Shown piece by piece: positions 41,459 through 61,578 of a stretch of DNA of 64,000 nt. Origin of the DNA: Thermoanaerobaculia bacterium (lineage in GTDB: Bacteria; Acidobacteriota; Thermoanaerobaculia; Multivoradales; Multivoraceae); assembly GCA_963664405.1 (NCBI GenBank), contig OY761158.1:4544001-4608000 (forward strand). The letters run 5' to 3'. Below the pieces are notes generated by a model that was given only the letters and a program-made list of their open reading frames with translations, did no database searches and had not been told where the DNA came from. The translations under genes and the position numbers were made by a program. Positions within the stretch are counted from its first letter, which is position 1. The number at the start of each line of letters is the position of its first letter.

Positions 41459-44350
<2,892 letters not shown>

Positions 44351-44518: not shown

Positions 44519-44632
44519 ATGACAAGTCGCGTGAGCTCGAACGCCTACCGTGCCCGTCGGGGCATTGGCGAAGGTGTGCTTGGAGAGTTGCTCGTACTCG
44601 TACTTATTGCCCACAGCCCGGGGGCGAAGTAA
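44519..44632 (+). CDS. ilv-leu operon attenuator leader peptide
   Basis: MTSRVSSNAYRARRGIGEGVLGELLVLVLIAHSPGAK with a run of Leu/Val/Ile codons, followed by antiterminator/terminator. Confidence 0.75.
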   Translation: MTSRVSSNAYRARRGIGEGVLGELLVLVLIAHSPGAK

Positions 44633-44661
44633 GCGTAGCAACAGAGAAGACGCGAAACTTG

Positions 44662-44693
44662 GCCCCCAGCAGAGCGCTGGGGGTTTTGTTTTA
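44662..44693 (+). terminator. Attenuator intrinsic terminator upstream of ilvE
   Basis: CCCCCAGC-AGAGC-GCTGGGGG followed by TTTTGTTTT. Confidence 0.85.
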
Positions 44694-44734
44694 TGGGGCT
44701 ATTGAGTCGATCGGGCCCAGGAGATATCAAGGCG

Positions 44735-45688
44735 ATGCCAATCGAGACCTCGGAGTGGATTTGGTACAACAGTAGGTGGGTGAAGTGGGAGGAGGCCACC
44801 GTCCATGTCACCGCCCATGCTCTTCACTATGGCTCGAGCGTCTTCGAGGGGGTTCGAGCGTACGAGGGAGACGAGGGCCCGCGCATCTTCCGCCTCGATC
44901 GCCATCTCGAGCGCTTTCTCGACTCCAGCAAGTTGTTGAGGTTCGACATGGGTGAGCACACGATGGAGAGGCTCACTCAGCTTTGTATCGATTTGGTAGC
45001 TCGCAATCGTCACAAGTCCTGCTACATCCGCCCAATCGCCTTCCGCGGAGAGGAGAGCATGGGCCTCTACCCTCTCGACTGTCCGGTCGAGGTCGTCCTC
45101 TTCAGTTTTCCGTGGGGTCCCTATCTCGGAGACGAGGCGATCGAGGATGGAGTCGACGTACAGGTCAGCTCCTGGCGTCGTTTCGCTCCCGGTACCGGCG
45201 CGCCACTTGGGAAGATCGGCGGTCAGTATGTGACCAACCAGTTCGTCTCCATAGAGGCGCGGCAAAACGGCTATGCCGAGGGCATCATGCTGGACAGTTT
45301 CGGATTTGTCAGCGAAGGTGCCGGTGAGAACGTGTTCGTCGTCAAGCGAGGTGAGATCACGACGCCGCCGATCAGTGCCTCGATCTTGTCTGGAGTGACT
45401 CGAGACAGTGTCATCATCCTGGCGCGGGATCTAGGAATCCCAGTCCACTTCGAGAATGTGACTCGAGAGATGCTCTATCTCAGCGACGAGCTCTTCATGA
45501 CCGGCACCGCGGCCGAGGTGAGTCCGGTGCGCTCCGTCGACCAGATTCCGATTGGCGAGGGTACGCGAGGGCCGATCACGAAGCGCTTGCAGGAGGAATT
45601 CTTCAACATCGTCGAGGGAACGATACCCGACCGGCACGGTTGGTTGACCTGCGTGCCACAAATCCAGTCTGTTGCGGTTCAGGACTGA
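44735..45688 (+). CDS. ilvE: Branched-chain amino acid aminotransferase
   Basis: LHYGSSVFEG, KIGGQY, EGAGENVF, ILSGVTR, GTAAEV. Confidence 0.96.
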   Translation: MPIETSEWIWYNSRWVKWEEATVHVTAHALHYGSSVFEGVRAYEGDEGPRIFRLDRHLERFLDSSKLLRFDMGEHTMERLTQLCIDLVARNRHKSCYIRPIAFRGEESMGLYPLDCPVEVVLFSFPWGPYLGDEAIEDGVDVQVSSWRRFAPGTGAPLGKIGGQYVTNQFVSIEARQNGYAEGIMLDSFGFVSEGAGENVFVVKRGEITTPPISASILSGVTRDSVIILARDLGIPVHFENVTREMLYLSDELFMTGTAAEVSPVRSVDQIPIGEGTRGPITKRLQEEFFNIVEGTIPDRHGWLTCVPQIQSVAVQD

Positions 45689-45719
45689 AGCCACCGGGCT
45701 CTTTGACTAGGAGAATCAG

Positions 45720-47426
45720 ATGAAGCTCACAGGCGCAGAGATCGTTTGGGAGTCACTCCTTCAGGAAGGCTCCGACCTCGTCTTCGGCTATCCGGGAGGG
45801 GCCATCCTCCCGACCTACGATGCTCTCAGCAAGTATCCGCAGATCCATCATGTGCTTACCCGCCACGAGCAGGGAGCCACCCATATGGCCGACGGGTTCG
45901 CGCGTGCGACAGGCAAAGTCGGCGTGGTGATCGCCACCAGCGGCCCGGGGGCGACCAATTTGGTCACCGGCATCGCGACCGCGATGATGGATTCCTCACC
46001 CATCGTGTGCATCACCGGACAGGTGCCGACGGGAGCAATCGGCACTGACGCGTTCCAGGAGACGGATGTGACGGGAATCACCCTGCCGATCACCAAGCAC
46101 AACTATCTGGTCACTGATGTTCGGGATCTGGCGGGAACCATTCGCGAAGCCTTTCATATCGCTCGCACGGGTCGTCCGGGGCCTGTCCTCGTCGACATTC
46201 CCAAGGATGTTCAGATCGCCGAGACTGTTTTCGAGTATCCGAGCGAGCCCATTCGCTTAGCCGGCTACCGGCTTCTCGACGCGCCACCCCCGGAGCAGGT
46301 CGAGGCCGCGATCGGGCTCATCCAGGCCGCTCGGCGGCCGCTGATCCTGGCCGGCCACGGCGTGCTCATGTCGGGTGCTGTTCGAGAGCTCAGAGAGTTT
46401 GCAGAGAAGACCCAGATACCCATTGCCCTGACGCTGTTGGGCAAGGGTGCAATCGCAGAGGGTCACCCGCTTTGCCTCGGAATGATGGGTATGCACGGAG
46501 AGGCCTGCGTGAACAATGCCATTCAAGATGCCGACTTGCTGTTGGCTTTCGGCATGCGCTTCGACGATCGGGTCACCGGCAACCTCGCCACCTACGCGAA
46601 GATCTCGAAGAAGATCCACGTCGACATCGACCCCTCGGAGATCAACAAGAACGTGCCGGTCGATGTAGGCATAGTGGGCGATTTGCGGGCGGTGCTGGCG
46701 CAGCTCATACCGCTGGCGGATCGAGAGGCAGAGGGCGAGTGGATGGACAAGATAAAGGGATGGCAGGGTGAGACCGAAGATCGAGACATCGCCGGCGAGG
46801 AGGGCTCGGACAAGCTTTACGCGGCGCATGTGATCCGAGACCTCTGGCGCTTCACGGACGGTGACGCCGTTACCGTCACCGATGTGGGTCAGCATCAGAT
46901 GTGGGAGGCCCAGTACTACCCCCATGAGCGACCGAACACACTGATCACGAGTGGCGGGCTGGGTACGATGGGTTTCGGGCTTCCTGCGGCGATCGGCGCC
47001 AAGATGGCCAAACCGAGTGAAGAGGTATGGGCGATAGTCGGTGATGGCGGCTTCCAGATGACCATGGCTGAGCTGGCGACGGCGGTTCAAGAGAAGGTCA
47101 ATGTGAAGGTGGCGATCATCAACAACGGCTATCTCGGGATGGTGCGTCAGTGGCAGGAGTTCTTCTACGAAGAGCGCTACAACGCCACTCCGATGATGAA
47201 CCCCGATTTCTGCAAGCTTGCTGAGGCTTATGGAATCCCGGCGATGAAGGTGACGAAGAGATCGGAAATGGAGTCGAGCGTGGCATGGGCCCGCGAGTAC
47301 CAGGACGGGCCGATTCTTGTCGAGTTCGTCGTCGAGAAGCATGACGTGGTCTACCCGATGGTGCCCACGGGTGCGACTCTCAACGAGATGATCCGTCGCC
47401 CCTCTGTCACGCCAGAGATGGTTTGA
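45720..47426 (+). CDS. ilvB: Acetolactate synthase large subunit
   Basis: FGYPGGA, RHEQGA, RFDDRVTG, GDGGFQM, LGMVRQWQ. Confidence 0.96.
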   Translation: MKLTGAEIVWESLLQEGSDLVFGYPGGAILPTYDALSKYPQIHHVLTRHEQGATHMADGFARATGKVGVVIATSGPGATNLVTGIATAMMDSSPIVCITGQVPTGAIGTDAFQETDVTGITLPITKHNYLVTDVRDLAGTIREAFHIARTGRPGPVLVDIPKDVQIAETVFEYPSEPIRLAGYRLLDAPPPEQVEAAIGLIQAARRPLILAGHGVLMSGAVRELREFAEKTQIPIALTLLGKGAIAEGHPLCLGMMGMHGEACVNNAIQDADLLLAFGMRFDDRVTGNLATYAKISKKIHVDIDPSEINKNVPVDVGIVGDLRAVLAQLIPLADREAEGEWMDKIKGWQGETEDRDIAGEEGSDKLYAAHVIRDLWRFTDGDAVTVTDVGQHQMWEAQYYPHERPNTLITSGGLGTMGFGLPAAIGAKMAKPSEEVWAIVGDGGFQMTMAELATAVQEKVNVKVAIINNGYLGMVRQWQEFFYEERYNATPMMNPDFCKLAEAYGIPAMKVTKRSEMESSVAWAREYQDGPILVEFVVEKHDVVYPMVPTGATLNEMIRRPSVTPEMV

Positions 47427-47451
47427 ATCGTTCGGGATCATAGAGGTAGAT

Positions 47452-47997
47452 ATGGGTAGACACATCCTTGCCGCATTGGTCGAGAATCGACCCGGCGTGT
47501 TGAGCCGGGTGGCGAACCTCTTTCGTCGACGTAGCTTCAACATCGATAGCCTGACCGTCGGGAGGACCCAGGACGACGACCACTCGCGGATCACTCTGGT
47601 CATGGAGGGCTCGCGCAAAGAAGCGGAGCGCCTAGAGCTGAACCTCTACAAGCTGATCAATGTGCTCGAGGTGGAGCATATGAGCGAGTCGCCTTCACTG
47701 GTGCGCGATCTTGCCCTGATCAAAGTGGCAGTCGACCGCGAGTCGAGGCGAGAAGTGCACCAGCTCACCCAGATTTTCCGCGCCCGAGTCATCGACGTCT
47801 CAGCAGAATCGATGATCATCGAGCTCACCGGTGAGGAGCGAAAGATAGAGAGCTTTGCCGAGCTCCTCAGACCCTTCGGCATTGTCGAGATGGTGCGTAC
47901 CGGGGTCGTCGCCATGGGTCGCGGAGAGCACACCTTGGAGCACGACGGCTATCAGCCCAGGGCCGGCGCCCTCGGCAGTCGTCGTTCAGTGTTGTAA
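47452..47997 (+). CDS. ilvN: Acetolactate synthase small subunit
   Basis: VENRPGVLSRV ACT domain, EMVRTG. Confidence 0.94.
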   Translation: MGRHILAALVENRPGVLSRVANLFRRRSFNIDSLTVGRTQDDDHSRITLVMEGSRKEAERLELNLYKLINVLEVEHMSESPSLVRDLALIKVAVDRESRREVHQLTQIFRARVIDVSAESMIIELTGEERKIESFAELLRPFGIVEMVRTGVVAMGRGEHTLEHDGYQPRAGALGSRRSVL

Positions 47998-48030
47998 CTA
48001 GAAAGAGAAGAAAAAAGGGAGAAAGCCTGG

Positions 48031-49041
48031 ATGGCTAAATTGTATTACGACGGCGATGCCGACCTTTCACTGCTCGACGGCAAGACCGTAGCGATTCTGG
48101 GTTACGGGAGTCAGGGTCATGCTCATGCACTCAATCTACGTGACAGCGGCGTCGAGGTCCTCGTAGGTCTTCAGGAGGAGTCGAAGAGTCGCGCGAAGGC
48201 GGAAGCCGAGGGTTTGCGAGTTCTGAGTCCGGCCGAGGCCGTTGCGGCCTCCAGTGTGGTCATGGTTCTGGTCCCCGATACGGCGCAGCACGACCTCTAT
48301 GAGAGCGACATCGCCCCCAATCTGGAAGCCGGAGACACTCTCATGTTCGCTCACGGCTTCAACATCCGCTTCGATGAGATCAAGCCGCCAGCCGAGGTGG
48401 ACGTGAGCATGGTCGCACCCAAGGCTCCGGGTCATCGTGTGCGCGAGGTCTTTCAGGAAGGCGCCGGTACCCCGGGGCTGGTTGCAGTCGAGCAGGACGC
48501 GAGCGGAGGTGCTTTGGCTTTGGCTCTGGCCTATGCCAAGGGCATCGGTTGTACGCGTGCCGGAGTCATCGAGACCACCTTCGCCGAGGAGACCGAGACC
48601 GATCTCTTCGGCGAGCAGGTGGTTCTGTGTGGCGGGGTCTCGGCGCTGGTGCGGGGAGCCTTCGAAACTCTCGTGGACGCCGGCTACCAGCCGGAGATCG
48701 CGTACTTCGAGTGTCTTCACGAGCTCAAGCTGATCGTCGACCTCATGTATGAGGGCGGTCTCAGCTATATGTGGTATTCGGTCTCCGATACTGCCGAGCA
48801 TGGCGGCTACGACGCCGGCGACAAAGTCGTTACAGCCGAGACCCGGGCGGCGATGAAGAAGATTCTCGAAGATATTCAACAGGGCGAGTACGCGAGGGGT
48901 TGGATCGATGAGAATCGGCGCGGCCGCCCTTGGTTCAACGAGAGGCGAGAGCAGGAGCGCTCCCATTCAGTCGAGGCGGTGGGCAAGAAGCTTCGCGCGA
49001 TGATGCCCTTCCTCGATGCCAAGGATCTGGCCAACGTTTGA
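48031..49041 (+). CDS. ilvC: Ketol-acid reductoisomerase
   Basis: [30 protein letters not shown]. Confidence 0.97.
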
Positions 49042-49185
49042 TTGCGTCTCGAGGAAAGGAGGTGGTTCTGTGTCAGCAGGTGGCCTTAGTGACGGAGAGC
49101 TTGTGAAGCACACATTTACGGTGCCGAGAGGCCTCGTGACGGAACACACCGCCTTGGCGATCGGCCCATAGCAGAGGTATCGAGT

Positions 49186-50784
49186 ATGACCCAGACTCCG
49201 GATCCCGACGTAGTTCGCATCTTTGACACTACTCTACGCGACGGGGAGCAATCCCCTGGCGCGACCCTGACCAGCGTGGAGAAGCTGGAGATCGCTAGAC
49301 AGCTGTCGATTCTCGGGGTCGACGTCATGGAGGCGGGATTCCCCGCCGCCAGCCCCGACGAGCTGCTCGGGACCAAGAGAATCGCCGAAGAGGTGGGCCG
49401 GCCGGATGGGCCGATCATCGCCGGCCTTGCCCGCACCAGCCGTGGCGACATCGACAAGGCCTGGGAAGCAGTGCAACCGGCAGCCAAGCCTCGTATTCAC
49501 ACCTTCATTGCCACCTCCGAGCTTCATATGGAACGCAAGCTCGAGATGACTCGCGAGCAGGTGGTAGCCCAGGTGCGAGACATGGTGACTTACGCACGAG
49601 GCCTGTGCGAGGATGTCGAGTTCAGCCCGGAGGACGGAAGCCGCTCCGATCGAGACTTCCTGGTCGAGGTGCTCGCGATCGCCATCGAGGCCGGTGCCAC
49701 GACCATCAATGTGCCCGACACGGTCGGGTACGCCACGCCGGAAGAGTATGCGGAGTTGTTTCGATTTCTGATCGCGTCGACTCCCGGCGCGGATGGAGTC
49801 ATCTGGTCAGTTCACTGTCACGACGATCTCGGCATGGCCACCGCCAACAGCATCGCCGGTCTCGCCGCCGGTGCCCGCCAAGCCGAAGTGACAATCAACG
49901 GCATCGGAGAGCGCGCCGGGAACACCAGTCTCGAGGAAGTGGTCATGGCCTTGCGGACACGCCATGGTCAGTACGGCCTGCGCACCGGCATCGAAAGCAC
50001 GCAGCTCACTCGCACCAGCCGAATGGTGAGCAATTACACCGGCATCGCAGTGCCTCCAAACAAGGCTATCGTCGGAGCCAATGCCTTCGCTCATGAAGCC
50101 GGTATCCATCAGGACGGCATGCTCAAAGACGAGCGCACCTACGAGATCATGACGCCGTCGACCGTCGGCCTCGCTGAGAGCAAGCTCGTGCTGGGCAAGC
50201 ACAGCGGTCGCCACGCCTTCCGGCTCCGCATGGCCGAGCTCGGCTTCGAGCTGTCTTCGGGCGATCTCTATCCCGCGTTCCAGCGCTTCAAGCTTCTCGC
50301 GGAGAAGAAGAAAGTGGTCACCGACGCGGATCTCCAGGCACTCGCCACCTCAGAGGTTACGTCGTTGGAGGAGCTCTTCTCGCTGGTCGATCTGCAGGTT
50401 GCGTGTGGCAAATCCGGTATGCCGACAGCAACAGTACGTTTGCGAGGGCCCGAGGGGGTCGAGGAGGTGGCGCCGGCCGTGGGCACCGGTCCGGTGGATG
50501 CTTCGTTTCAGGCCATCAACGCGATTGTTCGACAGGCCACTACTTTGGTTGAATACAGCGTCCACAGCGTTACCGAGGGTATCGATGCCCTCGGGGAGGT
50601 GAGCGTACGAATCAGGTCCGCCGACGGCGACCCCCGTACATTCGGGGGTTACAGTGCCGACACCGACGTCATCATGGCGAGCGCGCAGGCCTATCTGAGC
50701 GCGTTGAATCGGCTCCTCGTGGCGCAGGGGCAGGGAAGTACGGGCCGAGAAACAGGATCCGCGACGGTAAGCGTCGCGCGGTAG
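49186..50784 (+). CDS. leuA: 2-isopropylmalate synthase
   Basis: [38 protein letters not shown]-terminal allosteric domain. Confidence 0.95.
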
Positions 50785-50801
50785 GGAGGTTAGAGGCACG
50801 A

Positions 50802-52196
50802 ATGCAGAAGACGCTTCTTGAGAAGGTTTGGGATGGTCACGTCATTCCGGGAACGGGTGAAGACGGCTTACCGGCCGTTCTCTACATCGACCTCCATCTG
50901 ATTCATGAGGTCACCTCACCGCAGGCGTTCGCCGAGCTCGCCGAACGTGGGCTGGAAGTGCGCCGTCCGGATCAGACTCTCGCCACCATGGACCACTCGA
51001 CGCCGACCGATCCTACGATCGATGCAGCGAGATTGAAGGTGCTGGATCCGCAGGGGTTCGCGCAGTTGGAGCGCTTGGCGGAGAACTGCCGCAGGCACGG
51101 CATTCCCGTCTTCGACATGGCTAGCGAGCAGCGCGGCATCGTCCACGTGATCGGTCCGGAGCTGGGGGTCACTCAACCGGGCATGACAATTGTGTGTGGA
51201 GACAGTCACACCAGCACCCATGGCGCTTTCGGAGCACTTGCCTTCGGAATAGGCACCAGTGAGGTGGGGCACGTTCTGGCCACCCAGTGTCTGTTGCAGA
51301 ACCGGCCAAAGACCTTCGAGATTCGTCCAGACGGAGAGCTCCAGCCGGGGGTGACCGCCAAGGACTTGATCCTACATGTCATTTCGACCCTTGGCATTCA
51401 CGGCGGCACCGGACATGTCTTCGAATACCGCGGCGAGGCGATCAGCGCGCTGGGTATGGAAGAGAGGATGACCGTGTGCAATATGTCGATCGAAGGGGGC
51501 GCTCGCGCCGGCATGATCGCACCTGACGAGACTACGATCGAGTATCTTCGCGGTCGAGCTCACGCGCCTCGAGGCGACGCGTGGGAGAGGGCTGAGGAGG
51601 ATTGGCTCGATCTCGCCACCGACGCTGGAGCGGTGTTCGACAGGAGCCTCGCCGTAGACGCAGCCTCATTGGAGCCGATGGTCACATTCGGCACCAACCC
51701 GGGAATGGCGATTCCGGTGAGTGGCGAGATCCCTAGCGATGAAGAGACCTTTGGTAAAGCCCTCGCCTACATGGATCTCGAGGCGGGAGCTCCGATTCTA
51801 GGTCACAAGATCGAAGTGGTCTTTCTCGGCAGCTGCACGAACTCGCGGCTCTCGGACCTGCGTGCGGCGGCTTCCGTGCTCGAGGGGCGACAGGTTGCCA
51901 GGGGTGTCACGATGTTGGTGGTGCCGGGCTCTCAAGACGTCAAGCGTAAAGCGGAGGAGGAGCGCCTCGACGAAGTGTTTCGCGCGGCCGGGGCCCAGTG
52001 GCGGGAGGCGGGTTGCTCGATGTGTCTGGCGATGAACGGGGATCAGCTCGAGCCCGGCCAATACGCCGTCAGCACAAGCAATCGCAATTTCGAGGGACGC
52101 CAGGGGCCGGGTGGTCGCACCTTTCTCGCCAGCCCTCTCACCGCGGCCGCCTCGGCCATTCGCGGGGAAATCGCCGACGTGCGGGAGCTGCTTTGA
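50802..52196 (+). CDS. leuC: 3-isopropylmalate dehydratase large subunit
   Basis: [35 protein letters not shown]. Confidence 0.97.
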
Positions 52197-52807
52197 TGGC
52201 ACGCTTCGATACCCTGACAAGTCGCCTCGCCCCGCTGCCGCTAGACAATGTCGATACCGACCAGATCATTCCGGCCCGGTATCTCAAAGTGATCGACAAG
52301 GAGGGCCTCGGCGAGGGCCTCTTCTCGGCGTGGCGAACACTTCCGGATGGAAGTCGCGACCCCGCTTTCGTGCTCAACCAGAAGAAGTACGAAGGTGCGA
52401 AGATCCTCCTCGCGGGAGACAACTTCGGCTGTGGCAGCTCGAGAGAGCACGCCCCCTGGGCCCTACTGGGAGGAGGCTTCCGAGCCGTCATAAGCCCTCG
52501 CTTTGCGGATATCTTTCGCAATAACTCACTCAAGAACGGGCTCTTGATCGTTGAGGTCAGTCAGTCTGTCTACCGCCGCCTGCTAGCGCAGGTGGAAGCG
52601 GACCCTGTGGTAGAGGTCACCCTCGACCTGTCGCAAGAGCTCCTCTTCTTACCCGACGGCGAAGAGGTGTCTTTTCCTATCGACAGCTTCTCGCGACGTT
52701 GTTTGCTCGACGGCGTCGACCAACTCGGCTATCTCTTCGACCAGCTCGGCGCCATCGAGAGCTTCGAGCAGAGTCACGAGCCCCGAGTTAGGACCACTGA
52801 CTCCTAG
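52196..52807 (+). CDS. leuD: 3-isopropylmalate dehydratase small subunit
   Basis: NVDTDQIIPA, NFGCGSSREHAPWAL; ATG overlaps the leuC stop. Confidence 0.96.
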   Translation: MARFDTLTSRLAPLPLDNVDTDQIIPARYLKVIDKEGLGEGLFSAWRTLPDGSRDPAFVLNQKKYEGAKILLAGDNFGCGSSREHAPWALLGGGFRAVISPRFADIFRNNSLKNGLLIVEVSQSVYRRLLAQVEADPVVEVTLDLSQELLFLPDGEEVSFPIDSFSRRCLLDGVDQLGYLFDQLGAIESFEQSHEPRVRTTDS

Positions 52808-52816
52808 GGGAGCGCG

Positions 52817-53944
52817 ATGGGCGAAACGAATCAGCGAGCCAGGATTGTCCGTTTGCCGGGAGACGGCGTGGGCCCCGAGGTTCTCGGCGAAGGATGCCGG
52901 GTCCTGTCACTGGTGGCGGAGAGACGCGGCCTAATGCTGGATTTCGACGAGGCTCCGATCGGTGGCTGTGCTATCGACGCTTCGGGTAGTGCATTGCCGG
53001 ACGAGAGCGTCGCCATTTGTGAGAAGGCTGATGCGCTCTTCTTAGGAGCTGTCGGAGGGCCGAAGTGGTCGGATCCGACAGCGCCGGTTCGTCCTGAGCA
53101 GGGCCTTCTGGAGCTGCGTCGGCATTTCGGTCTTTTCGCCAACCTGCGACCCGTGCCGGTTTATGAGGGATTGCTCGACCTGACGCCGATCAAGGCCGAG
53201 CTCGCTCGAGGTGTCGACATCTTATTTGTTCGCGAGTTGACCGGCGGCATCTATTTCGGTCCACGGCTCGAACAGGGTGAAGGCACGACGGCGTCGGACA
53301 CCCTGGTTTATAGCTCGGACGAGGTGGAGCGGGTCGCTCGGGTCGCGTTTGAGGCCGCGAAGGATCGCCGCGGCAAAGTGACCTCGGTGGACAAGGCCAA
53401 TGTCCTGGCCTCGATGCGACTGTGGCGGCGGACCGTCGAGGTCGTCGCCAGAGACTATCCGGAGGTGGAGCTGGAGCACGTTCTGGTGGATGCCTGCGCC
53501 ATGCATCTGATCAGGACGCCGGCGACCTTCGACGTGATTCTGGCGGGGAACCTGTTTGGCGACATTCTCAGCGACGAAGCCTCGGTCCTTTCCGGCTCGC
53601 TTGGGATGTTGCCGTCAGCTTCTCTCGGCGACGGCCCAATGGGTCTCTACGAGCCGGTTCACGGGTCCGCTCCCGACATCGCAGGGCAAGGCATTGCCAA
53701 CCCTGTCGGCGCGATCCTGTCGGCGGCGATGTTGCTGCGCTTCAGTCTCGGTCGCGAGCAAGAGGCCTTGGCAGTCGAGGCCGCCGTAGCACGCACTTTG
53801 GACGACGGCATACGCACCTCGGATCTTGGATTGTCGGGCGCTAGCGGAGCCTCGACCCGAGAGATGGGTGACGCGATCTTGCAGCGCCTCGACGCCATCC
53901 TCACCGACCACTCATCGAGAGGTTGTCCCGGCGTCAGAGGATGA
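52817..53944 (+). CDS. leuB: 3-isopropylmalate dehydrogenase
   Basis: [50 protein letters not shown]. Confidence 0.96.
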
Positions 53945-55985
53945 CCGCTTCGGCTCCCAGATCTGCTATGAGATCGTCGAAGCGTTGCAGGATGGCGTCC
54001 CAGCGATCGAAGAGGCTCTTGAGCTCAGCGGGTCTCAGATAGGGCTCGAGTCGCTCCTCGACAGCGCCGCGATCCGCTGTCCGCAGCTTCTCCCAGAGCT
54101 CGCGCTCGCAGCGACTGAGCTTGGCGATCGCTTCCTCGCTGTGCTCGCTGAAGAAGGATCGACCGTGGTCGATGAGCCAGACCTTCCACTCGGAGTCGAT
54201 GAGATAGTTGCCTGGGTTGCGATCGTGATTGTTGATCAGGGCGTCGAAGACATCAACTTCTCCCATCTGGCGCGACCAGTCCCTGATATCGGGTGGCCGA
54301 AGCCCTTCTGAGCGCCTCCGCCCTTCGGTCATTGCATTCTCCAGCCAAGCCTGGATCGACCCCTTGGCGCCTTTGTAGGATCTTGGCGCGGTTGGCGGAA
54401 CGCGGTCGAGGCTGAGGATACGATCGAGCTCGTAGGCCGCGGTATCGAAGGCGTAGCTATCGCGGAAGTGCCGGTAGAACTTGCCGTCCCCGATCTTCTT
54501 GTTGCGGTGCTCCAGGTCTACATCACGGAAGATGGCGCGGGCTCGGATGCCGTCGCGCTCCAGCTCTACACGAATCGGCTGATTGATCCCTTCCTTGCTC
54601 CGCTTTCCGGACTTGACAGCGGCGGTACTGAGAAACTCCAGCAGCTGCTCGGCACTGCCAAAGGGTAGGGGCGCGCCATCGGCACCGGCCCATGACCAGG
54701 GCTGCGTCGTGGTCGCGACAGCAGCAGCGGGTGCCCCGCTCGCCGACAGGCTCAGGCGTTGACGGGGCGGCTCTTCGCTCTCCTTCCACAGCGGCACTCT
54801 GTTGTTCTTGTAGATCGCGGTGAAGGCACCATCCTGGATCTCGAGAGCGGAGGCCTGCCCACGATAGGTCGAGGTCAGCATGCCGGTGTCGATCAGGAAG
54901 ATTCGGCCGTCGAAACGCACACCGATTTCGCGATCGGTCTGCACATTGTGGCCCACGACGATGTGCTTCGTTCCTTGGGCCGCCAGGACCGCGTCAGTTA
55001 GCGCCGGTCCCTCCTCGTCACTCCAACCCGCCTCTCCTCCGGGCTCGGGAACGGAGTCTCGGTAGCCGCGGAACCAGAGCGGTCCCTCCGGAGCAAACAG
55101 ATACCACTCTTCGTAGTTGCTGCATTGGCTGAGCGTTTCGAGCTGTGAGACTTCGATCTCGCTGAGCCCCTTGTTCTGCTGTTTGACCTGGAGGCCGTTC
55201 AGCGTCGCGAAGCCCGACTGGATGAGGTCGGCAGTTGTCGATGTCAGGGTGAGATAACCCTCTCCGCGTAGCAGTGCGCGGCAGGCGTCTAGGTTCGCCA
55301 CTTCTTCGTGCACCTGCCGGTTGATGTCTTCGATCGGGCGAGCGCCGACCTCAGGGGTGAGACCGGCGTGGAGAAAGAGGGCGTTATCGACGCGAACGAT
55401 TGCGGGCAGGCCTCTGAGCCAGCTCCCGTACTTCCCTTCGGGCAGGAGTTGCTGGAGGTAGGCGATGGTTCCTTCAGGGTTCGCCTTCGACCACAGCTCG
55501 CGCTCGCTGGTGCCGAAGGCCGGACGCGGCAACGACAGCAATTTGGCTCGGTTGCGTGCGGCGCGGACCATGCTCTTGTACTCTTCGTCGCGCTTCGCCG
55601 TCGTGCTCTCGTCTGCGAAGTGACCGAGCGCTTCGGCGCTGACGTCTCTGAGCTCACCGACCAGATTCAGGGCTTCGTGGTTCCCCATCAGAACCTCGAC
55701 CCGACCTCCGGCGGCCGCCGCCTCTCGCTGGAGTCGCATCAGCAGGTCCATGACCTCGCGCACGCCCGGCCCCCGATCGGTGAAGTCGCCGGTTTGGACG
55801 AGGGTGCTATCGCCCCCCGACCACGTGAGCTTCTCGTCGATGAGGCCGCTGGCGATGAGAATCTCCACCAGCTCGTCGTAGGCGCCATGAATATCGCCAA
55901 TGGCGACGGTGCGGGCCCCAAGAACCGCGGCCGGCAACGAAAAGAGGAGGAGTACAAGTGCGGCGACGCGAGCGCCTGAGATCAT
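53934..55985 (-). CDS. Exported Shewanella-like metallophosphatase fused to a C-terminal atypical (PI3/4K/HipA-like) kinase domain
   Basis: Signal peptide; GDIHG, GDFTDRG, GNHE, HAG, GPLWFR, VGH, IDTG; C-terminal [41 protein letters not shown]. Confidence 0.82.
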
Positions 55986-57025
55986 GGCGCCACCTGCTGG
56001 AGCATCGTTCCTTCGCGAGCGATCTGTGCCGCGGCCTCGACCCAGTGGTCATCGCTGTTCAGAGAAGGAACCAGGCGGAGCTCTTGGCCCCCATGATCGA
56101 TGAAGTCCTGCCTGGCGCGGATGGCGATCTCTTCGAGGGTCTCGAGACAGTCGGCAACGAAGGCCGGAGAGAGAACGGCCAGCCGCTTCACGCCTTTCCT
56201 GGCGAGAGCCGGAACCCTGAGATCTGTGTAGGGCTTGATCCAAGGGTCGCGGCCGAGCCGAGATTGGAATGTCACCTCGTATTGACTCTCGTCGAGGCCG
56301 ACGAGCCTGGCGATGCCGCGGGCGGTCGCAAAGCACTGGGCCCGGTAGCAATTCCGGTTGGCGGCGACGATCGTGTCGCAACACCCATCGCCGAGACAGT
56401 GAGCGCCGTCGGACTCGTCGCTCTTGGTGACATGCCGCTCCGGCAGACCGTGGAAGCTCATGAGCGTAAAGTCTGGGGCGAAATGCTCGTGCACCCGCTT
56501 GGTCTGCTCCGCGAAGGATGCAAGGAATGCGGGATGATCGTAGAAGGGCGGCACGACTTGAATCGACGGTATGTTCCAGAATACCGACGCTTCTTCCATC
56601 ACCTTTTCAACGGCCGATCCCCAAGCCGCCGAGGAGTACTGGGGGAAGAGGGGGAAGACCACAAGCTTGTCGAGCGCCAGCTCGCGTAGGCGAATGAGAG
56701 CTTGGCGGATCGATGGGTTCTTGTAACGCATGGCGAGCTCGATTGCGACCTCGGGGCCGAGCTTCTTCTGGAGCTTTTTGGCCAGATCCTGCCCATGGAA
56801 AAGGAGAGGTGATCCGCGGTCGGTCCAGATCTGGCCGTATGCTTCGGCGGACTTGCGAGGCCGAAACGGAAGAATGAACAGATTGAGCACCAGCGCTCGC
56901 TGGATCGGGTGCACATCGAGCACGCGAGGGTCGGAGAGGAACTCTCGGAGGTAGCTGCGCACCTCGGCGGTACTGGGGCTGTCGGGAGTCCCGAGGTTGA
57001 CAAGGAGTAGGCCGTAGCGTGGCAC
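55982..57025 (-). CDS. hemH: Ferrochelatase with Cys-rich insertion
   Basis: LVNLGTP, YLREFLSDPRV, PLFPQYS, SFHGLP, FQSRLG, DCLETLEEI. Confidence 0.95.
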   Translation of the reverse strand: MPRYGLLLVNLGTPDSPSTAEVRSYLREFLSDPRVLDVHPIQRALVLNLFILPFRPRKSAEAYGQIWTDRGSPLLFHGQDLAKKLQKKLGPEVAIELAMRYKNPSIRQALIRLRELALDKLVVFPLFPQYSSAAWGSAVEKVMEEASVFWNIPSIQVVPPFYDHPAFLASFAEQTKRVHEHFAPDFTLMSFHGLPERHVTKSDESDGAHCLGDGCCDTIVAANRNCYRAQCFATARGIARLVGLDESQYEVTFQSRLGRDPWIKPYTDLRVPALARKGVKRLAVLSPAFVADCLETLEEIAIRARQDFIDHGGQELRLVPSLNSDDHWVEAAAQIAREGTMLQQVAP

Positions 57026-57086
57026 GGGGCGATCAAGTCTAGCAGTCAGTTGCCGGCCGCGCTTCGAGAAAAACTTGCTTCAAGCG

Positions 57087-59969
57087 TCACGCATGTGAGG
57101 TATTAGAGATACTTAGAACCCACCGAGCGGTTTCTTCGAGAAGAGGATCCGCGGGTCCTCGGGCGACCGATTCGACGAGCGGAGTGAGTCCTCTGATTTC
57201 CTCCTCGTGGACGAAGCTCAGTGCGGCCGCTCCCAGCCAGAGGCCGACGGCGTCGGAGTCTCTGGCTCCCTGGATGAGGTTGCGGACGATGTCCTGCTTC
57301 TCGCCGTGACTGATGTGGAATAACCGCTGAGCCTCGGCCAGACGCTCGTCGGAGGGTATGTCGTCGACCACGGCCAGCGTGTGCCGGCGGATGGACGGAG
57401 GGAGACTGTTATCGAGATACTCGAGAGCATGACCTCTCATCCTGGTGTCGGAGCTCTTGAGCTGTTCGAAAGCGGTGAGCCTTTCGTGTCGACTCTCCAC
57501 CATCGAGAGTAGAGCGAAGAGATTCGCCGAGTGGTCGGAGAGACGATCCATCAGCAGTTCCTGAAGCAGGGTTGGTGGCCGCTGGGAGCGCCAGCGGAGG
57601 CGGATTCCCCGAACGGAAAGCTCCCCGGGTCTCGAGATCGGGATCAGACGGGAGAAGGCACGGAGATAGAGTCTGGTCTCTTCTATGGCGTGCCTCTCGA
57701 CCACATGGCGATCGAAGCGGAGGCTCGGATCCTGGTCATGCAGTGAGGCCAGCGATGCGATGATCTTTCCGTTGAGGAAGGCGTCGTCGGTCGGGAGGCT
57801 GTCGATCAGGGCGTTCTTTGCGGCCTCTCCGCCGATGCGCGCGATGGTCTTGGGGAGGGCGCGCCGGATCCAGTAGAACTCTCTGGGGTCGGTCATGAAG
57901 TGGGCGAGTGCAGGGATCACCGCTTCGCCGCTGGCGACGAGGGCGTTGCGCACCTCGTGCTTCAGGCGCCGCTTCCTGAGCAGAGAGGTCAGAACCGGAA
58001 CGAATAGGTAGTTCACGCCGTCGCGCTCAATCTGTTGCAGCGCGCTGGCGATGGCTGCGCGAAGCACCTCGAGATCGGAGTCCGACAGCAGATGAAGAAG
58101 GCCAGCATGGGAGTCGGCGCCGCCGATAGAGCCCAGAGCTTGCGCCGCCGCCTCCCGGGTCTTGGGGTCGGCATCTCTGAGCATCCCGGCGAGCGCTCCC
58201 TGCGCTCGCTCGCCGATCTCTGGCTCGTTCTCGATCTGGAGGAGGCAGACGATGGCGGCGGCTCGCACCCGCTTGTCGGGGTCGCGCAGGCGGGGAACCA
58301 TCAGCGCAGAGATGTCTGTATCGGTGAGCGTTGCAAGCGTGCGCACCGCATCCACGCGCACGTCCGGATCGTTGTCGGCGACCAGGCGCTCGACCAGTGA
58401 CCGGGCGTCTCGACGTCCCAGATCGCTCAACAGGGCCAGGGTGCGGCGCCGGACCAGGGGGTCGTCGTGAAGAAGGAGCAGCGGCGGGACCAGGCGTCCG
58501 CGTCCCTGCGACGTCAACAGGTCGAGGCTGTGGAGCACTTCCCCCGAGTCCGCGCTTCCCAGTGAGCTGACAAGGACTTCCAGCGTGGTCACGTCAGAGG
58601 GATCGAGGCGCTCGTCGGGATCGATCCTTCTGGCCAACAGGCCCTCGCGAAAGATGGCGACGTAGTTCTTCCGCACGATGATGGTCAAAGCGAGCCAGGC
58701 AGCGACCAGAACCAGCACGGCCCAGCCCGTCTGGACCGGCGACACCCAGCCGAAGGTCACGCTCAACAGGAGCACCCCTGCTCCCGCCTTGGCGAATCGT
58801 TGCACCAGCACGTCGATGTAGGCCTTGATTCTGGGGCGGATGTTCAGGGGGACAGGAACGTAGAGAAGCTCTCTCGTGCCCTGGTCCAAGGAGTAGCGGA
58901 GCGCGCCCTCGCTGACTTTGAGCCCCGCCACCGCGGCGACGAGGAGGGAGGGCAACACAGCCGCGGAAAACAGCACGAGCATGGTGCCCAGGCCCATACA
59001 GACCGGCAGCACGCGGAGCGCGAAGCCCACGCCAAGCACCCGATGGACTCTCGAAGTCACCACCAGCTGCAACACCAGGGCGACCAAAGCGCTCAAACTG
59101 AAGAGGTTCCCGAACAGGCGGGTTCTTTGGTCCAGGAGGTCGGTGGACTGCTGGACGACCCAATTGAACTGCAGGTCGATGAACTGCGCCACGATGATGC
59201 TCACGAACATCAGCCCGGCAACCGCGAGGAGGTGTGGGGATTGGCGGATGGTGGCGAAGTCGCCGCGAGTGGCCTCCACCTTCGGCTCGGGTCGAGGCAT
59301 GGTGGTGGTTGCGTACGCGACCGTCTTGTTACCGTCGTGGATGCGGCGCACGAACGCCAGTGTTCCGAGTAACAGCAGGGTGGAGGCCAGGAGGGTGGCC
59401 CGGGTCTCCAGGAAGACGGAGCTCCAGCGGGCAACCTGACCGCCGATGACGCCGCCGAGGAGTCCCCCGGAGAGTACGAGGCCGAAGAGGCGGCGGGCTT
59501 GTCGTGGGTGGAGTAGTTGGCCGGCCCAGCTCCAGAACTGGCTGAAGAGAAGCAGGGTGACGATCGAGATCCAGATGTAGAAGACGAAGCTGACCCAGGG
59601 CCACGGGTAGGCGTAGAGAGACCAGAAGACCAACAGGGTCGCGACGACGACCAGGGTTGTCCACGAGATCAGCCGCTCGAGCGGGGCTCGTGCCGCTGCG
59701 CGGCTGTACCCTCGAAGAACCGGATAGGCGAAGAGAGCGACTACCACATAGACGATCGGTAGGCGCTCAAAGCCGAGGCTGTCCACGAAGGAGGATTGAC
59801 GGACGCTCTTGGCGGCGAATTGGAAGGCGCCGAGAAGAACGCAGTAGCCGAAGAGGGAGCCTACGAGGCCGGCTTCCTCCTGCCGAACGTCGAAGCCGAT
59901 TCGCGCGAGAGCCCGCCAAGGCCATCCAGTGGCTCTATGGGCCCCAGCCGGTTTTAGACTTCGGTCCAC
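57087..59969 (-). CDS. Npt1/Npt2 (NTT, ATP/ADP translocase-like) transporter fused to HEAT repeats
   Basis: About 12 TM N-terminal domain with KSVRQS, SQFWS, ARRLFG..GG..GG, LRYSLDQGTRELLYVPVP..KAYIDV; DPLVR/DPDVR/DKRVR HEAT repeats. Confidence 0.85.
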   Translation of the reverse strand: MDRSLKPAGAHRATGWPWRALARIGFDVRQEEAGLVGSLFGYCVLLGAFQFAAKSVRQSSFVDSLGFERLPIVYVVVALFAYPVLRGYSRAAARAPLERLISWTTLVVVATLLVFWSLYAYPWPWVSFVFYIWISIVTLLLFSQFWSWAGQLLHPRQARRLFGLVLSGGLLGGVIGGQVARWSSVFLETRATLLASTLLLLGTLAFVRRIHDGNKTVAYATTTMPRPEPKVEATRGDFATIRQSPHLLAVAGLMFVSIIVAQFIDLQFNWVVQQSTDLLDQRTRLFGNLFSLSALVALVLQLVVTSRVHRVLGVGFALRVLPVCMGLGTMLVLFSAAVLPSLLVAAVAGLKVSEGALRYSLDQGTRELLYVPVPLNIRPRIKAYIDVLVQRFAKAGAGVLLLSVTFGWVSPVQTGWAVLVLVAAWLALTIIVRKNYVAIFREGLLARRIDPDERLDPSDVTTLEVLVSSLGSADSGEVLHSLDLLTSQGRGRLVPPLLLLHDDPLVRRRTLALLSDLGRRDARSLVERLVADNDPDVRVDAVRTLATLTDTDISALMVPRLRDPDKRVRAAAIVCLLQIENEPEIGERAQGALAGMLRDADPKTREAAAQALGSIGGADSHAGLLHLLSDSDLEVLRAAIASALQQIERDGVNYLFVPVLTSLLRKRRLKHEVRNALVASGEAVIPALAHFMTDPREFYWIRRALPKTIARIGGEAAKNALIDSLPTDDAFLNGKIIASLASLHDQDPSLRFDRHVVERHAIEETRLYLRAFSRLIPISRPGELSVRGIRLRWRSQRPPTLLQELLMDRLSDHSANLFALLSMVESRHERLTAFEQLKSSDTRMRGHALEYLDNSLPPSIRRHTLAVVDDIPSDERLAEAQRLFHISHGEKQDIVRNLIQGARDSDAVGLWLGAAALSFVHEEEIRGLTPLVESVARGPADPLLEETARWVLSISNTSHA

Positions 59970-59976
59970 TAGCCGA

Positions 59977-60801
59977 CTAGTCTGCAGGTAGCATCAACAC
60001 CGCCGGATCGATCCGTGCTCCACGCCAACGAAGACCGAAGTGTAGATGAGGGCCCGTCACCCTTCCGGTGCTACCGACCCTGCCGATAGCTTTGCCGCCT
60101 TCGACTTTTTCGCCGGCCTCGACATCGATCCGGCTGAGATGCATATACATACTGATCAGTCCGTCTCCGTGGTCGATGAAGACGCTGTTGCCGCCGAAGA
60201 AGTGCTCCTCCGCAAGCACTACCTCGCCGGCCGCGGCGGCCAGTACCGTAGTGCCTGTCGAGGCCTTGTAGTCTTCGCCGCTGTGAGGGCTGCGCGGCTG
60301 GCCGTTGAAGACCCTTTTGGAGCCGAAGCTGGTGCCGGGTCGCGGATCTTTGATCGGGTGTGCAAGCGGAATCTCGAACTGTCTACCGGTGTCGCGATCC
60401 CACAGGGCATCGATCTGAGCTCTCTCCTCACCGGCGCGAGTGAGATTGGCCTCTGACAAGTTGACCTGGCCGTCGTCGCTCACCCGCAGATGCTGCACGC
60501 GATAGGGATAATCACCCAGCTTTACCGTGGCCGACTCTTGCGCTCCATTGCGACGGCGATGGATGGCAAGCTCGCCGCTGCGGTCGAGGTCGATCGGGAA
60601 GTAACAAGTGTCTCCGTGAGGGAGCCAGGAGCGGTCGTCCGCCGAGCAGCTTTCGGTGTCGGCTGCGACCCAACGAACGACGGTGCCGGCAACAGCGGAG
60701 ATGGGCTCGTCCTCGGCCACGAGGCCGGGTGCGAGAAGCGCGATTCCGAGAGCCGAGAGTACGAGGCTCGCCGCGAGTGGGCATCTGTTGCGGGTTGTCA
60801 T
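59977..60801 (-). CDS. Exported M23 family metallopeptidase
   Basis: Signal peptide; HSGED (HxxxD), YMHL, GSTGRVTGPHLHF. Confidence 0.92.
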   Translation of the reverse strand: MTTRNRCPLAASLVLSALGIALLAPGLVAEDEPISAVAGTVVRWVAADTESCSADDRSWLPHGDTCYFPIDLDRSGELAIHRRRNGAQESATVKLGDYPYRVQHLRVSDDGQVNLSEANLTRAGEERAQIDALWDRDTGRQFEIPLAHPIKDPRPGTSFGSKRVFNGQPRSPHSGEDYKASTGTTVLAAAAGEVVLAEEHFFGGNSVFIDHGDGLISMYMHLSRIDVEAGEKVEGGKAIGRVGSTGRVTGPHLHFGLRWRGARIDPAVLMLPAD

Positions 60802-60840
60802 GGTGGGGTCGGCTTGCTCTGCCGGATCGTAGCACCGGCC

Positions 60841-61128
60841 CTAAGGATCCAGCATGACAGTCGCTCTTCCCTGCTCGGCGATAAGCGCGCGGAAGTGGAC
60901 GAGGATTCGCTACCGGTCGGTGAGATCGCCGGTCTGCACCAAGGTCGTGTCGTCGCCGGACCAGGTGAGCTTGTCGTCGACCAGACCGGTGGTGCGAAGG
61001 ATCTCCACCAGCTCGCCGTAGGCACCGTGGATGTCACCGATGGCGACGGTACGCCCCGCGGACGCCGTGGCCGGCAGCGACGAGAGAATGAGTGCCGCCG
61101 CTGCGATCCGACCCAACGCCGAGCTCAT
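60841..61128 (-). pseudogene. Internally deleted paralog of the exported phosphatase-kinase gene
   Basis: Signal peptide plus [10 protein letters not shown]...GDLTDR, TAG, then in-frame RILVHFRALIAEQGRATVML resembling the C-terminus of 53934-55985. Confidence 0.8.
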
Positions 61129-61547
61129 CAGGAATCCCGGTCGACTTCGGGCTCTGAGAGAAATTCGCGAAATAGTGCCTTGACGATCTCGATGTTGTGA
61201 GAGAGCAGGTCGAAGAAGTCGTCGGCCTCGACAGCCAGGGTCACGGTAGAGCACTGGGCGGTAGCTCTGGAGGAGTGCAGGCGTCCGCTGAGGATCTCCC
61301 TCGCTCCGAATGTCTGGCGAGAGAGGGCACGCCGTGCCCCATCACTCGTGCCCACGAGCTCCACCTCACCCTCGACGACGCAGTAGAAGGCGTCCGCCGG
61401 CTCGTTGATGCCATAGACCTCCTCCCCTTCTTCGAAGTGTCGCTCACTGGAGATGCCGGCGATGCGCACAACCTCCTCGGCGCTGCAGTGGCTGAAGATG
61501 TCGACATTGCGCAGCATCATCACCTTTTCGATCTGGGCGAGCTTCAC
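61128..61547 (-). CDS. Stand-alone cyclic nucleotide-binding (cNMP) domain protein
   Basis: IEKVMMLRNVDIFS, F..GE, FYCVVEGEV, FGAREIL; no HTH. Confidence 0.85.
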   Translation of the reverse strand: MKLAQIEKVMMLRNVDIFSHCSAEEVVRIAGISSERHFEEGEEVYGINEPADAFYCVVEGEVELVGTSDGARRALSRQTFGAREILSGRLHSSRATAQCSTVTLAVEADDFFDLLSHNIEIVKALFREFLSEPEVDRDS

Positions 61548-61578
61548 GAGGCCGCCCAGTCTACCAGCCGGCCGAGTC

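Follow-up and report, generated by a model that had tools for sequence, protein, structure and literature searches.

A predicted exported phosphatase fused to a Fam20-like kinase-fold domain, and its linkage to NTT-HEAT transporters in the Acidobacteriota

A 64,000-nucleotide stretch of the genome of a Thermoanaerobaculia bacterium (Acidobacteriota; assembly GCA_963664405.1, contig OY761158.1, positions 4,544,001 to 4,608,000 of the forward strand), here called the window and numbered from its first letter, carries a gene for a predicted exported protein in which a Shewanella-like PPP phosphatase domain is joined to a kinase-fold domain whose closest characterised relatives are the Fam20 kinases. 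The two domains seem to constitute a conserved functional pair in the Acidobacteriota, fused in some lineages and encoded by split neighbouring genes in others, and they are linked to a nucleotide-transporter-like membrane protein of the NTT-HEAT type. We regard the domain assignments as close to certain, and the functional coupling of the phosphatase and the kinase-like domain as very probable. The full mechanism, a periplasmic kinase/phosphatase module with ATP supplied by NTT-HEAT, is put forward tentatively, at somewhat short of an even chance. The finding hints at reversible phosphorylation run by bacteria outside the cytoplasm.

The gene is a single open reading frame (ORF) of 683 codons that fills positions 53934..55985 of the minus strand, as seen from the ORF listing and the translation, with its stop codon at 53934-53936. 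The coordinates given by the first-pass annotation of this DNA, which had been made from the sequence without database searches, were exact, and the strand is the minus strand; a plus-strand reading of the same positions was rejected, as its translation yielded only stops. The ATG of the fusion gene and the TGA of the upstream ferrochelatase gene share the letters ATGA, a 4-base overlap that supports the choice of start codon. The protein comprises a signal-peptide-like N-terminus (residues 1-23, 55917..55985; hydropathy and a positive n-region), a Shewanella-like PPP metallophosphatase domain (residues 24-400, 54786..55916; Pfam Metallophos, PDB 2z72/1v73 and motifs), a low-complexity Ala/Thr/Pro linker (residues 401-439, 54669..54785; low pLDDT) and a Fam20-like kinase-fold domain of 244 aa (residues 440-683, 53937..54668; AF2 model, VIA, Foldseek and profile), all on the minus strand. 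Each motif that the annotation had listed for the protein was found, in the order in which it was listed, and the Ala/Thr linker that it had placed between the domains is predicted to be disordered, with pLDDT below 50 at residues 405-426 of a full-length AF2 model (mean pLDDT 91.0, pTM 0.62). Scoring of 8000 candidate proteins gave 2363 relatives of the fusion protein at E<=0.001; the best 120 are mostly 650-800 aa long with coverage of at least 96%, and the named ones among these 120 are called ‘metallophosphoesterase’ and belong to metagenome-assembled genomes (MAGs) of Acidobacteriota, Thermoanaerobaculia or Terriglobales.

Residues 440-683 were aligned with 55 homologues and the structure of the C-terminal domain was predicted by AF2 from that alignment, with a pLDDT of 94.9 and a pTM of 0.92. 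Foldseek comparison of the model with the PDB returned Fam20A, Fam20C and Fam20B-type chains first (E 1.9e-10, TM(query) 0.76), followed by type II phosphatidylinositol (PI) 4-kinases. A second structure search, VIA, which is independent of Foldseek and covered 48,161 chains, matched the model to hydra Fam20, a Fam20B-type enzyme (5xom_A; Z 20.4, root-mean-square deviation 3.0 Å, 231 of 244 residues aligned), zebrafish Fam20C (5yh0; Z 20.1), C. elegans Fam20 (4kqa; Z 18.9), PI4KIIa (4pla; Z 18.6), the H. pylori secreted kinase CtkA (3akj; Z 16.0), actin-fragmin kinase (1cja; Z 12.5), HipA (4pu3; Z 11.8) and CotH (5jda; Z 10.1), and its alignments to the Fam20 chains span 227-231 of the 244 residues. 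Structure comparison was the check that the first-pass annotation had proposed for this domain, with the lack of a kinase fold to count against it; a kinase fold was found.

The sequence points to the same family. A profile of the family, searched against PDB sequences, matched Fam20A (4.9e-15), Fam20C (1.9e-12 and 4.4e-12), hydra Fam20 (5.3e-10) and C. elegans Fam20 (9.4e-9), and PI4KIIa at merely 1.7e-3. By modelled structure and by sequence, Fam20 is thus the nearest characterised family, and it is clearly the closest of the three (PI3/4K, HipA and Fam20) among which the domain had originally been grouped. Single-sequence Pfam scores were weak (PI3_PI4_kinase E 0.01, HipA_2 0.13, Fam20C 0.18). 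PF00454 gave 18.3 bits against a cut-off of 27.1 with the domain alone; the SCO1664 family TIGR03843 gave an E of 1.5e-12 but 47.4 bits against a cut-off of 172.4. When 56 members of the family were compared with Pfam at E<=0.01, 34 matched PI3_PI4_kinase, 24 HipA_2 and 18 Fam20C (best Fam20C E 6.6e-6). No curated family for the domain was obtained from Pfam, NCBIfam or the ESM Atlas; its neighbours in the last are acidobacterial clusters auto-named ‘PI3K/PI4K catalytic domain-containing’ or ‘hypothetical’. The domain is best called ‘Fam20-like’ and not a member of Pfam Fam20C (PF06702), because its score lies under the Pfam cut-off and the ATP-binding Lys is absent.

The motifs of the C-terminal domain begin at residues 484 (AIFRD), 513 (FDTAAYEL), 588 (DRNPGN) and 605 (IDHG). 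Hydra residues are given in the numbering of Zhang et al. (PMC5865150), from which the chain index is offset by 22, consistently for Lys133, Asp152, Asp299 and Lys321, and the roles are those described in excerpts of that paper. Arg487 occupies the position of the Lys of the FKP strand that binds ATP (Lys133 of hydra Fam20). Asp509 corresponds to Asp152 of the hydra enzyme, Glu213 of C. elegans Fam20 and Glu306 of human Fam20C, an essential acid that forms an ion pair with the Lys and is Gln in Fam20A; Asp514 aligns with Glu218 of C. elegans Fam20, at the canonical alphaC Glu position. Asp588 is equivalent to the catalytic base, Asp299 of hydra Fam20, and Asp606 to the DFG-like Asp that binds metal. 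Arg609 takes the place of Lys321 of Fam20B-type enzymes, a residue that is critical for Fam20B and is Arg in Fam20C. A further key residue is N593, the Mg-binding Asn of the catalytic loop DRNPGN.

The conservation of these residues was counted in 329 domains aligned to the family hidden Markov model (HMM); 333 proteins had given 336 domain matches, of which 7 partial ones were dropped. Asp588 is kept in 328 of the domains, Asn593 in 323, Asp606 in all 329, Asp509 (as Asp) in 325 and Arg609 in 320. The first-pass annotation had noted Arg for the beta3 Lys and Asp for the alphaC Glu, and alignment to the Fam20 structures bears out both replacements: Arg in place of the Lys is usual in the family and no peculiarity of the window protein, and Asp at the alphaC position is a minority state, present in 14/329 domains. 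Furthermore, the Lys position covaries with the canonical alphaC position, the combination R/D/E occurring in 239 domains and H/D/Q in 52; the R/D/D combination of the window protein occurs in 8. Because the catalytic residues are all fixed and the Lys is systematically replaced, this pattern argues for an active site that works with altered nucleotide handling rather than one that has decayed. Arg or His in place of the ‘invariant’ kinase Lys, with the other catalytic residues kept, represents a natural experiment in kinase chemistry. A substrate assigned by analogy to Fam20B was considered and rejected, as the Lys321 equivalent is Arg in 320 of the 329 domains, as it is in Fam20C, and the change K312R abolishes the activity of human Fam20B (excerpts of PMC5865150).

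The N-terminal half is predicted to be an intact Shewanella-like PPP phosphatase. Its motifs lie at residues 30 (GDIHG), 66 (GDFTDRG), 101 (GNHE), 206 (HAG), 345-346 (GH) and 365 (IDTG), and these, together with the match to 2z72/1v73, uphold the full Shewanella-like PPP motif set that had been read from the sequence at the outset. The PPP signature motifs and the bacterial-type (I/L/V)D(S/T)G were defined by Andreeva and Kutuzov (PMC535813), excerpts of whose paper describe inserts between GNHE and H(A/G)G in the Shewanella-like phosphatases (‘Shelphs’) and report the Shewanella enzyme as Tyr-specific. In the fusion protein a helical insert lies between GNHE and HAG, with inserts at residues ~115-300. 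With 44.1 bits (E 4e-11) the domain clears the Pfam Metallophos cut-off of 21.5, and the closest solved relative by sequence is the Shewanella cold-active protein-tyrosine phosphatase (PDB 2z72/1v73, E 2.6e-24), with ApaH following at 4.6e-6 and PP2A types at 0.08-0.3; 2z72 is also the top Foldseek match of the full-length model (E 5e-17). The N-terminal motifs, the C-terminal His motifs, the closest relative and a score above the Metallophos cut-off all place the domain in the Shewanella-like group. Residues D31, H33, D67, D70, R71, N102, H103, H206, H346 and D366 are invariant in 62 full-length homologues; they cover every metal-binding and catalytic residue and all fall within the PPP signature motifs or the bacterial-type (I/L/V)D(S/T)G. 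The fusion protein also has a weak match to TIGR04075 (Pnkp-type, E 2.3e-5).

Residues 1-23 consist of MISGAR, a hydrophobic core and AVLG, followed by Ala24, which places V-L-G at -3 to -1. The 10-residue Kyte-Doolittle maximum is 2.92 and the n-region is positive, which is a heuristic assessment. For the homologues a N-terminus was called signal-like when the 10-residue Kyte-Doolittle mean reached at least 2.0 ahead of the first motif, which is a crude measure. Such an N-terminus is present in 55 of the 57 fused homologues that start with Met (62 in total, 5 without a Met start being excluded), and in the fused homologues Arg or Lys almost always precedes the hydrophobic segment and an AxA-like site follows it. 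The stand-alone Fam20-like proteins have signal-like N-termini of their own in 133 of 142 cases, counted over complete proteins with at least 25 residues ahead of the fold (35 N-terminally truncated or too short ones were set aside); several of the 9 that have none are visibly fragments of fused genes. P0206 and P0207, which are cytoplasmic SCO1664-like relatives, have no signal peptide and keep the Lys. The signal peptide named in the first-pass annotation therefore agrees with hydropathy, charge and the AxA-like site as well as with the homologues: the N-terminus resembles a Sec signal peptide, and export of the fusion protein is well supported in silico.

The association of the two domains was followed in 80 loci on contigs taken from one genome per species, which were seeded with the phosphatase motifs and scored with our own HMMs. 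Both domains lie in one frame in 14 of these loci, and in 21 a separate Fam20-like gene lies within 300 bp of the phosphatase gene (14 upstream on the same strand, 5 downstream and convergent, 2 upstream and divergent). A Fam20-like gene is found within 6 kb in 13 more, and the remaining 32, several of them on short contigs, have the phosphatase only. In the fusions the phosphatase precedes the kinase, whereas in split pairs the kinase gene usually comes first; since the order differs between the two forms, the association has survived repeated rearrangement. When metagenome loci were instead seeded with the kinase domain (n=80), 21 contained the phosphatase, 23 NTT and 15 both, 18 were fused and 51, mostly contigs of a few kb, had neither; among the loci of at least 9 kb (n=23) the corresponding numbers were 15, 15, 14, 12 and 7.

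The same association is seen in the distribution of the genes over 151 genomes of the phylum (cut-offs of E<=1e-10 for the Fam20-like domain, E<=1e-20 for the phosphatase half and E<=1e-10 for NTT). The Fam20-like domain was found in 37, the phosphatase in 38 and NTT in 59, and comparison of the three tables shows that all 37 genomes with the Fam20-like domain have both the phosphatase and NTT. The sole extra phosphatase genome (G022) shows a weak match, and its assembly is 83% complete. In 22 of the 37 genomes the Fam20-like match is either fused to the phosphatase match or no more than ~4 kb away from it.

When the ORFs of the 80 phosphatase-seeded loci were clustered, a single recurrent neighbour emerged apart from antisense shadows: a protein ~950-1100 aa long with MFS/TLC-type helices, HEAT repeats and sometimes a cyclic-nucleotide-binding (cNMP-binding) domain; several other recurrent clusters were antisense shadows of the three core genes and were rejected. 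This NTT-HEAT protein is present in 36 of the 80 loci. In the window it is a protein of 960 aa, NTT(TLC)-HEAT, encoded at 57087..59969 on the minus strand two genes upstream of the fusion gene. The first-pass annotation had not remarked on this neighbour, which bears on how a kinase outside the cytoplasm might come by ATP. It scores 28.2 bits against the Pfam TLC (ATP/ADP transporter) cut-off of 21, E 1.6e-23 with HEAT_2, and 26 bits with NCBIfam TIGR00769 (NTP/NDP exchange), far under the cut-off of 387. It is predicted to consist of a nucleotide-transporter-like membrane domain of ~12 transmembrane segments and then a HEAT-repeat domain; the latter is probably cytoplasmic, because the hydropathy plot has 11 clear peaks and one likely one and the N-terminus is rich in Lys and Arg. 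A cNMP-binding ORF lies between NTT-HEAT and phosphatase in six loci (L003, which is the closest relative, L004, L008, L022, L063 and L073), at the place where hemH stands in the window, and in L005 a cNMP-binding domain is fused to the end of NTT-HEAT. Long NTT frames (at least 750 aa) occur in 33 of the 37 genomes with the Fam20-like domain and in 8 of the 114 without it; this length is a proxy for the HEAT fusion, not checked domain by domain, and one of the 8 (G049) is flagged as unpublished, no other result depending on it. The architecture itself is that of Major, Embley & Williams (2017, PMC5381601), excerpts of whose paper describe it as widespread in free-living bacteria, often with a cNMP-binding gene next to it, and report its function as unknown.

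The Fam20-like family is large: of the 2690 cluster representatives that a search with the C-terminal domain gave at E<=0.001, 1185 reach E<=1e-10 and 368 reach E<=1e-30. It comes in fused form, as stand-alone proteins of ~285-330 aa and, in P0208, as two tandem domains. The domain is prone to expansion: up to 12 matches occur in one genome, genomes G046 and G092 are among the expanded cases, and contig C23 of G046 has five tandem Fam20-like genes beside a phosphatase and an NTT gene (44541-48880). The genome from which the window comes has a second, stand-alone Fam20-like copy (C1:6683258-6683974 on the minus strand; locus L083, 9238..10269 on the minus strand), with 32% identity and a signal-like N-terminus. 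Its motifs deviate, with Gln at the Lys position, DAN for DRN and IDF for IDH, and its neighbours are housekeeping genes (methylmalonyl-CoA mutase, coaX, birA and a response regulator); it may be a degenerate or re-purposed paralogue.

Further copies of the phosphatase were also observed. A remnant of its first ~72 residues, from the signal peptide through GDLTDR to a stop, lies in the window at 60910..61128 on the minus strand, immediately ahead of the M23 peptidase gene. It matches residues 6-71 of the fusion protein with 47 of 66 residues identical (E 1e-28) and is probably what is left of a phosphatase gene, duplicated or displaced, which formerly stood at the head of the cluster. Elsewhere in the same genome there is a third match of the Shewanella-like phosphatase type (C1:27125-27733, plus strand), a 368-aa frame with 33% identity to residues 24-228. 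Phosphatase loci, with or without the Fam20-like gene, were also seen in bins labelled as non-Acidobacteriota: L023 and L059 (Acidimicrobiia MAGs), L062 (a Myxococcota MAG), L079 and L082 (Gammaproteobacteria MAGs), L075 and L076. These could reflect horizontal transfer or mis-binning.

From the domain identities, the export-type N-termini, the fusion or adjacency of the genes, the phyletic match and the NTT linkage we infer an extracytoplasmic module. It would have three parts, the Sec-exported phosphatase, the Fam20-like kinase and the inner-membrane NTT(TLC)-HEAT protein, often with a cyclic-nucleotide-binding partner. NTT-HEAT would swap cytoplasmic ATP for periplasmic ADP, an exchange that its cytoplasmic HEAT/cNMP part might regulate; the Fam20-like domain would use that ATP to phosphorylate an extracytoplasmic substrate, either protein or glycan, and the PPP domain would take the phosphate off again, resulting in a reversible cycle outside the cytoplasm. 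Here we infer export, catalytic activity, the direction of nucleotide transport and a single substrate for both activities. The strongest form of the proposal, true extracytoplasmic ATP-driven reversible phosphorylation in Acidobacteria, the first in bacteria, with NTT-HEAT as an ATP-out/ADP-in antiporter under cyclic-nucleotide control alongside the exported Fam20-like kinase and the PPP phosphatase, we think doubtful, though worth stating. If true, it would give the NTT-HEAT transporters of free-living bacteria the function that has long been missing for them, and the Fam20 kinases of the animal secretory pathway a relative, perhaps even their origin, among prokaryotes.

A number of observations weigh against such a module. 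The periplasm is generally held to lack ATP. Change of the kinase Lys to Arg is a classic inactivating change, and of the 329 domains 248 have Arg at the position of Arg487, 58 have His and 9 other residues, while only 14 have Lys. No Pfam kinase model reached its cut-off with the fusion protein (Fam20C 11.8 bits against 26.8, PI3_PI4 16.2 against 27.1), and the mutual orientation of the two domains is undefined in the full-length model, as its pTM of 0.62 indicates. The Fam20-like match has no phosphatase match close by in 15 of the 37 genomes, which is partly due to fragmented assemblies, and no NTT or phosphatase gene is found near the second Fam20-like copy of the window's own genome. In only 14 of the 37 genomes are an NTT match and a Fam20-like match at most 5 kb apart, the phosphatase being that near to NTT in 4 more, and 22 NTT-positive genomes have no phosphatase/Fam20-like pair; the 151 genomes are moreover relatives and not independent trials, so that all counts over them overstate independence. 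Finally, the Protochlamydia NTT prefers ATP import and is built not to run in reverse, according to excerpts of PMC1951785.

Four other explanations have to be set beside the ATP-supplied module. The Fam20-like domain could be a pseudokinase that serves the phosphatase as a substrate-recognition, targeting or allosteric module, much as Fam20A serves Fam20C; 306 of the 329 domains have Arg or His where the ATP-binding Lys would be, and the best PDB sequence match is the pseudokinase Fam20A itself. However, Fam20A is a pseudokinase partly through loss of the acid equivalent to Glu306 (excerpts of PMC5865150), and this acid is kept as Asp in 325 of the 329 domains. The catalytic Asp, the Mg-binding Asn and the DFG-like Asp are likewise kept, in 328, 323 and 329, which would be hard to explain without catalysis, and linkage to a nucleotide transporter would have no role; we therefore regard a pseudokinase as unlikely. 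Alternatively, the kinase fold may carry out some other nucleotide-dependent modification, such as AMPylation/NMPylation of the SelO or SidJ kind, which the metallophosphoesterase half would reverse as a phosphodiesterase. The atypical Arg/His is suggestive of altered nucleotide binding, as is its covariation with the alphaC position, where E accompanies R in 239 domains and Q accompanies H in 52; kinase-fold proteins can catalyse reactions besides phosphate transfer (excerpts of PMC7948968), and the phosphatase half also resembles (E 4.6e-6) another member of the PPP superfamily, the diadenosine tetraphosphatase ApaH. Yet fold and sequence both place the domain closest to true kinases (Fam20B, Fam20C and PI4KII), the best match of the phosphatase is a phosphomonoesterase and there is no sequence feature specific for a flipped nucleotide, so that this explanation too seems quite improbable.

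An exported phosphatase is also a classic phosphate-scavenging enzyme, and the proteins might together scavenge external nucleotides or organophosphate, with NTT-HEAT as an importer and no regulatory phosphorylation cycle. The characterised NTTs are indeed importers (excerpts of PMC5381601 and PMC1951785). Scavenging would leave a kinase-fold domain with intact catalytic residues no obvious role, however, and the phosphatase would destroy the very nucleotides meant for import; the near one-to-one coupling of the two domains (37 against 38 of the 151 genomes) and their repeated fusion point rather to a common substrate, and we give scavenging as small a chance as a modification other than phosphorylation. 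Least probable of all, and in our view very improbable, is that the hydrophobic stretch is not an export signal and that the fusion protein is cytoplasmic, or anchored by its N-terminus with the domains on the cytoplasmic side, where ATP abounds. In favour of this, the putative cleavage site lies only 1-2 residues ahead of the first phosphatase beta-strand. Against this, the charge, hydrophobic core and AxA-like site are kept in the fused homologues (55/57), the stand-alone Fam20-like proteins carry like N-termini independently (133/142), and the cytoplasmic SCO1664-like proteins P0206 and P0207 have no such N-terminus.

In the window the fusion gene is the last of four co-directional genes on the minus strand. 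The first encodes an M23 peptidase with a signal-like N-terminus (59977..60801; Pfam Peptidase_M23 E 2.6e-32) and ends 7 bases before the start of NTT-HEAT, which is separated by 61 bases from the ferrochelatase gene (hemH; 55982..57025; Pfam Ferrochelatase E 1.7e-92); the 4-base overlap with the fusion gene follows. Neither hemH nor the M23 peptidase was a recurrent neighbour in the clustering of the 80 loci, and for this reason they are not counted as parts of the module, although membership of the M23 peptidase is uncertain. A simple scan of 53000-62000 found 0 promoter-like sites, and 2 terminator-like sites that both lie inside the NTT-HEAT gene and fall short of a shuffled expectation of 4.4; it is uninformative on the limits of the operon. 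Other recurrent neighbours in the 80 loci were a sigma-54 activator (10) and an ABC ATPase (9). On the plus strand a complete branched-chain amino-acid cluster at 44693..53944, identified from its translations (ilvE-like aminotransferase, acetolactate synthase, ketol-acid reductoisomerase, leuA, leuC, leuD and leuB), converges on the fusion gene, the end of leuB overlapping the fusion stop region by 11 bases. At 41459..44350 on the minus strand lies a gene for a 963-aa SNF2-type helicase whose N-terminal Cys/His cluster resembles, by eye in the translation, a SWIM zinc finger.

Phosphorylation outside the bacterial cytoplasm has been considered implausible for want of ATP; because a nucleotide-transporter homologue and a dedicated phosphatase are tightly linked to the kinase-like domain, the question of extracytoplasmic ATP can be tested directly. 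The bacterial Fam20-like family furthermore adds a relative from prokaryotes to the Fam20 fold, one that offers structural studies a minimal model. A literature search that left most subscription journals outside its scope found no exported bacterial Fam20-like kinase, no such fusion and no function for NTT-HEAT, and nothing on acidobacterial Shewanella-like phosphatases of this kind or on periplasmic ATP or kinases. The 2021 review of the Fam20 family (PMC7948968) places its orthologues ‘across the animal kingdom’, and the excerpted main text has no prokaryotic relatives. The architecture is built from known folds; the three-gene module and its ATP hypothesis are undescribed, as far as could be checked.

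Comparison with known systems brings out what is shared and what is not. The 960-aa neighbour has the same architecture as the NTT-HEAT and NTT-HEAT-cNBD fusions of PMC5381601, a TLC/NTT membrane domain with HEAT repeats, and the cNMP-binding gene described there directly downstream is likewise present in loci related to the window; excerpts of that paper mention no phosphatase or kinase neighbours, and the link to a predicted exported kinase/phosphatase pair is new here. With the Shewanella PPP phosphatase (1v73/2z72) the N-terminal half shares the PPP signature motifs, the bacterial-type (I/L/V)D(S/T)G and the insert between GNHE and H(A/G)G, but the fusion protein has longer helical inserts (~115-300) and the additional C-terminal kinase-fold domain. 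Enzymes in which one polypeptide both adds and removes phosphate include bacterial Pnkp, PFK-2/FBPase-2, AceK and HPr kinase/phosphorylase, and Pnkp also uses a calcineurin-type metallophosphoesterase; all of them are cytoplasmic, with P-loop or unrelated kinase modules, and to our knowledge none has a signal peptide followed by both a PPP domain and a protein-kinase-like fold.

The type II PI 4-kinases, CtkA, the SCO1664 family, HipA and CotH have the atypical kinase fold in common with the C-terminal domain, but all are more distant from it than Fam20 by sequence, and no family cut-off was reached. The Fam20 kinases (5yh0, 5xom, 4kqa and 5wrr), among which Fam20C is the Golgi casein kinase, Fam20B a xylosylkinase and Fam20A a pseudokinase, share the fold over nearly the whole domain (Z 18.9-20.4; profile E 5e-15 to 9e-9), together with the catalytic-loop Asp, the DFG-like Asp and the ion-pair acid, which is Asp as in the Fam20B-type hydra enzyme; the Arg that follows the DFG-like Asp is common to Fam20C. 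The domain differs from Fam20 in being bacterial (Acidobacteriota), in its minimal core of 244 aa compared with ~350-430 residues in the solved chains, and in a single semi-conserved Cys, which leaves it without the Fam20-type disulfide set. It further differs in its Arg or His for the ATP-binding Lys, in sitting under the Pfam Fam20C cut-off and in having a PPP phosphatase and an NTT transporter as fused or linked partners. Fam20 kinases are synthesised with a signal for secretion and should act beyond the cytosol, and the same would be expected of the fusion protein; in the Golgi lumen they rely on imported ATP, to which the supply of ATP in the proposed module would be analogous.

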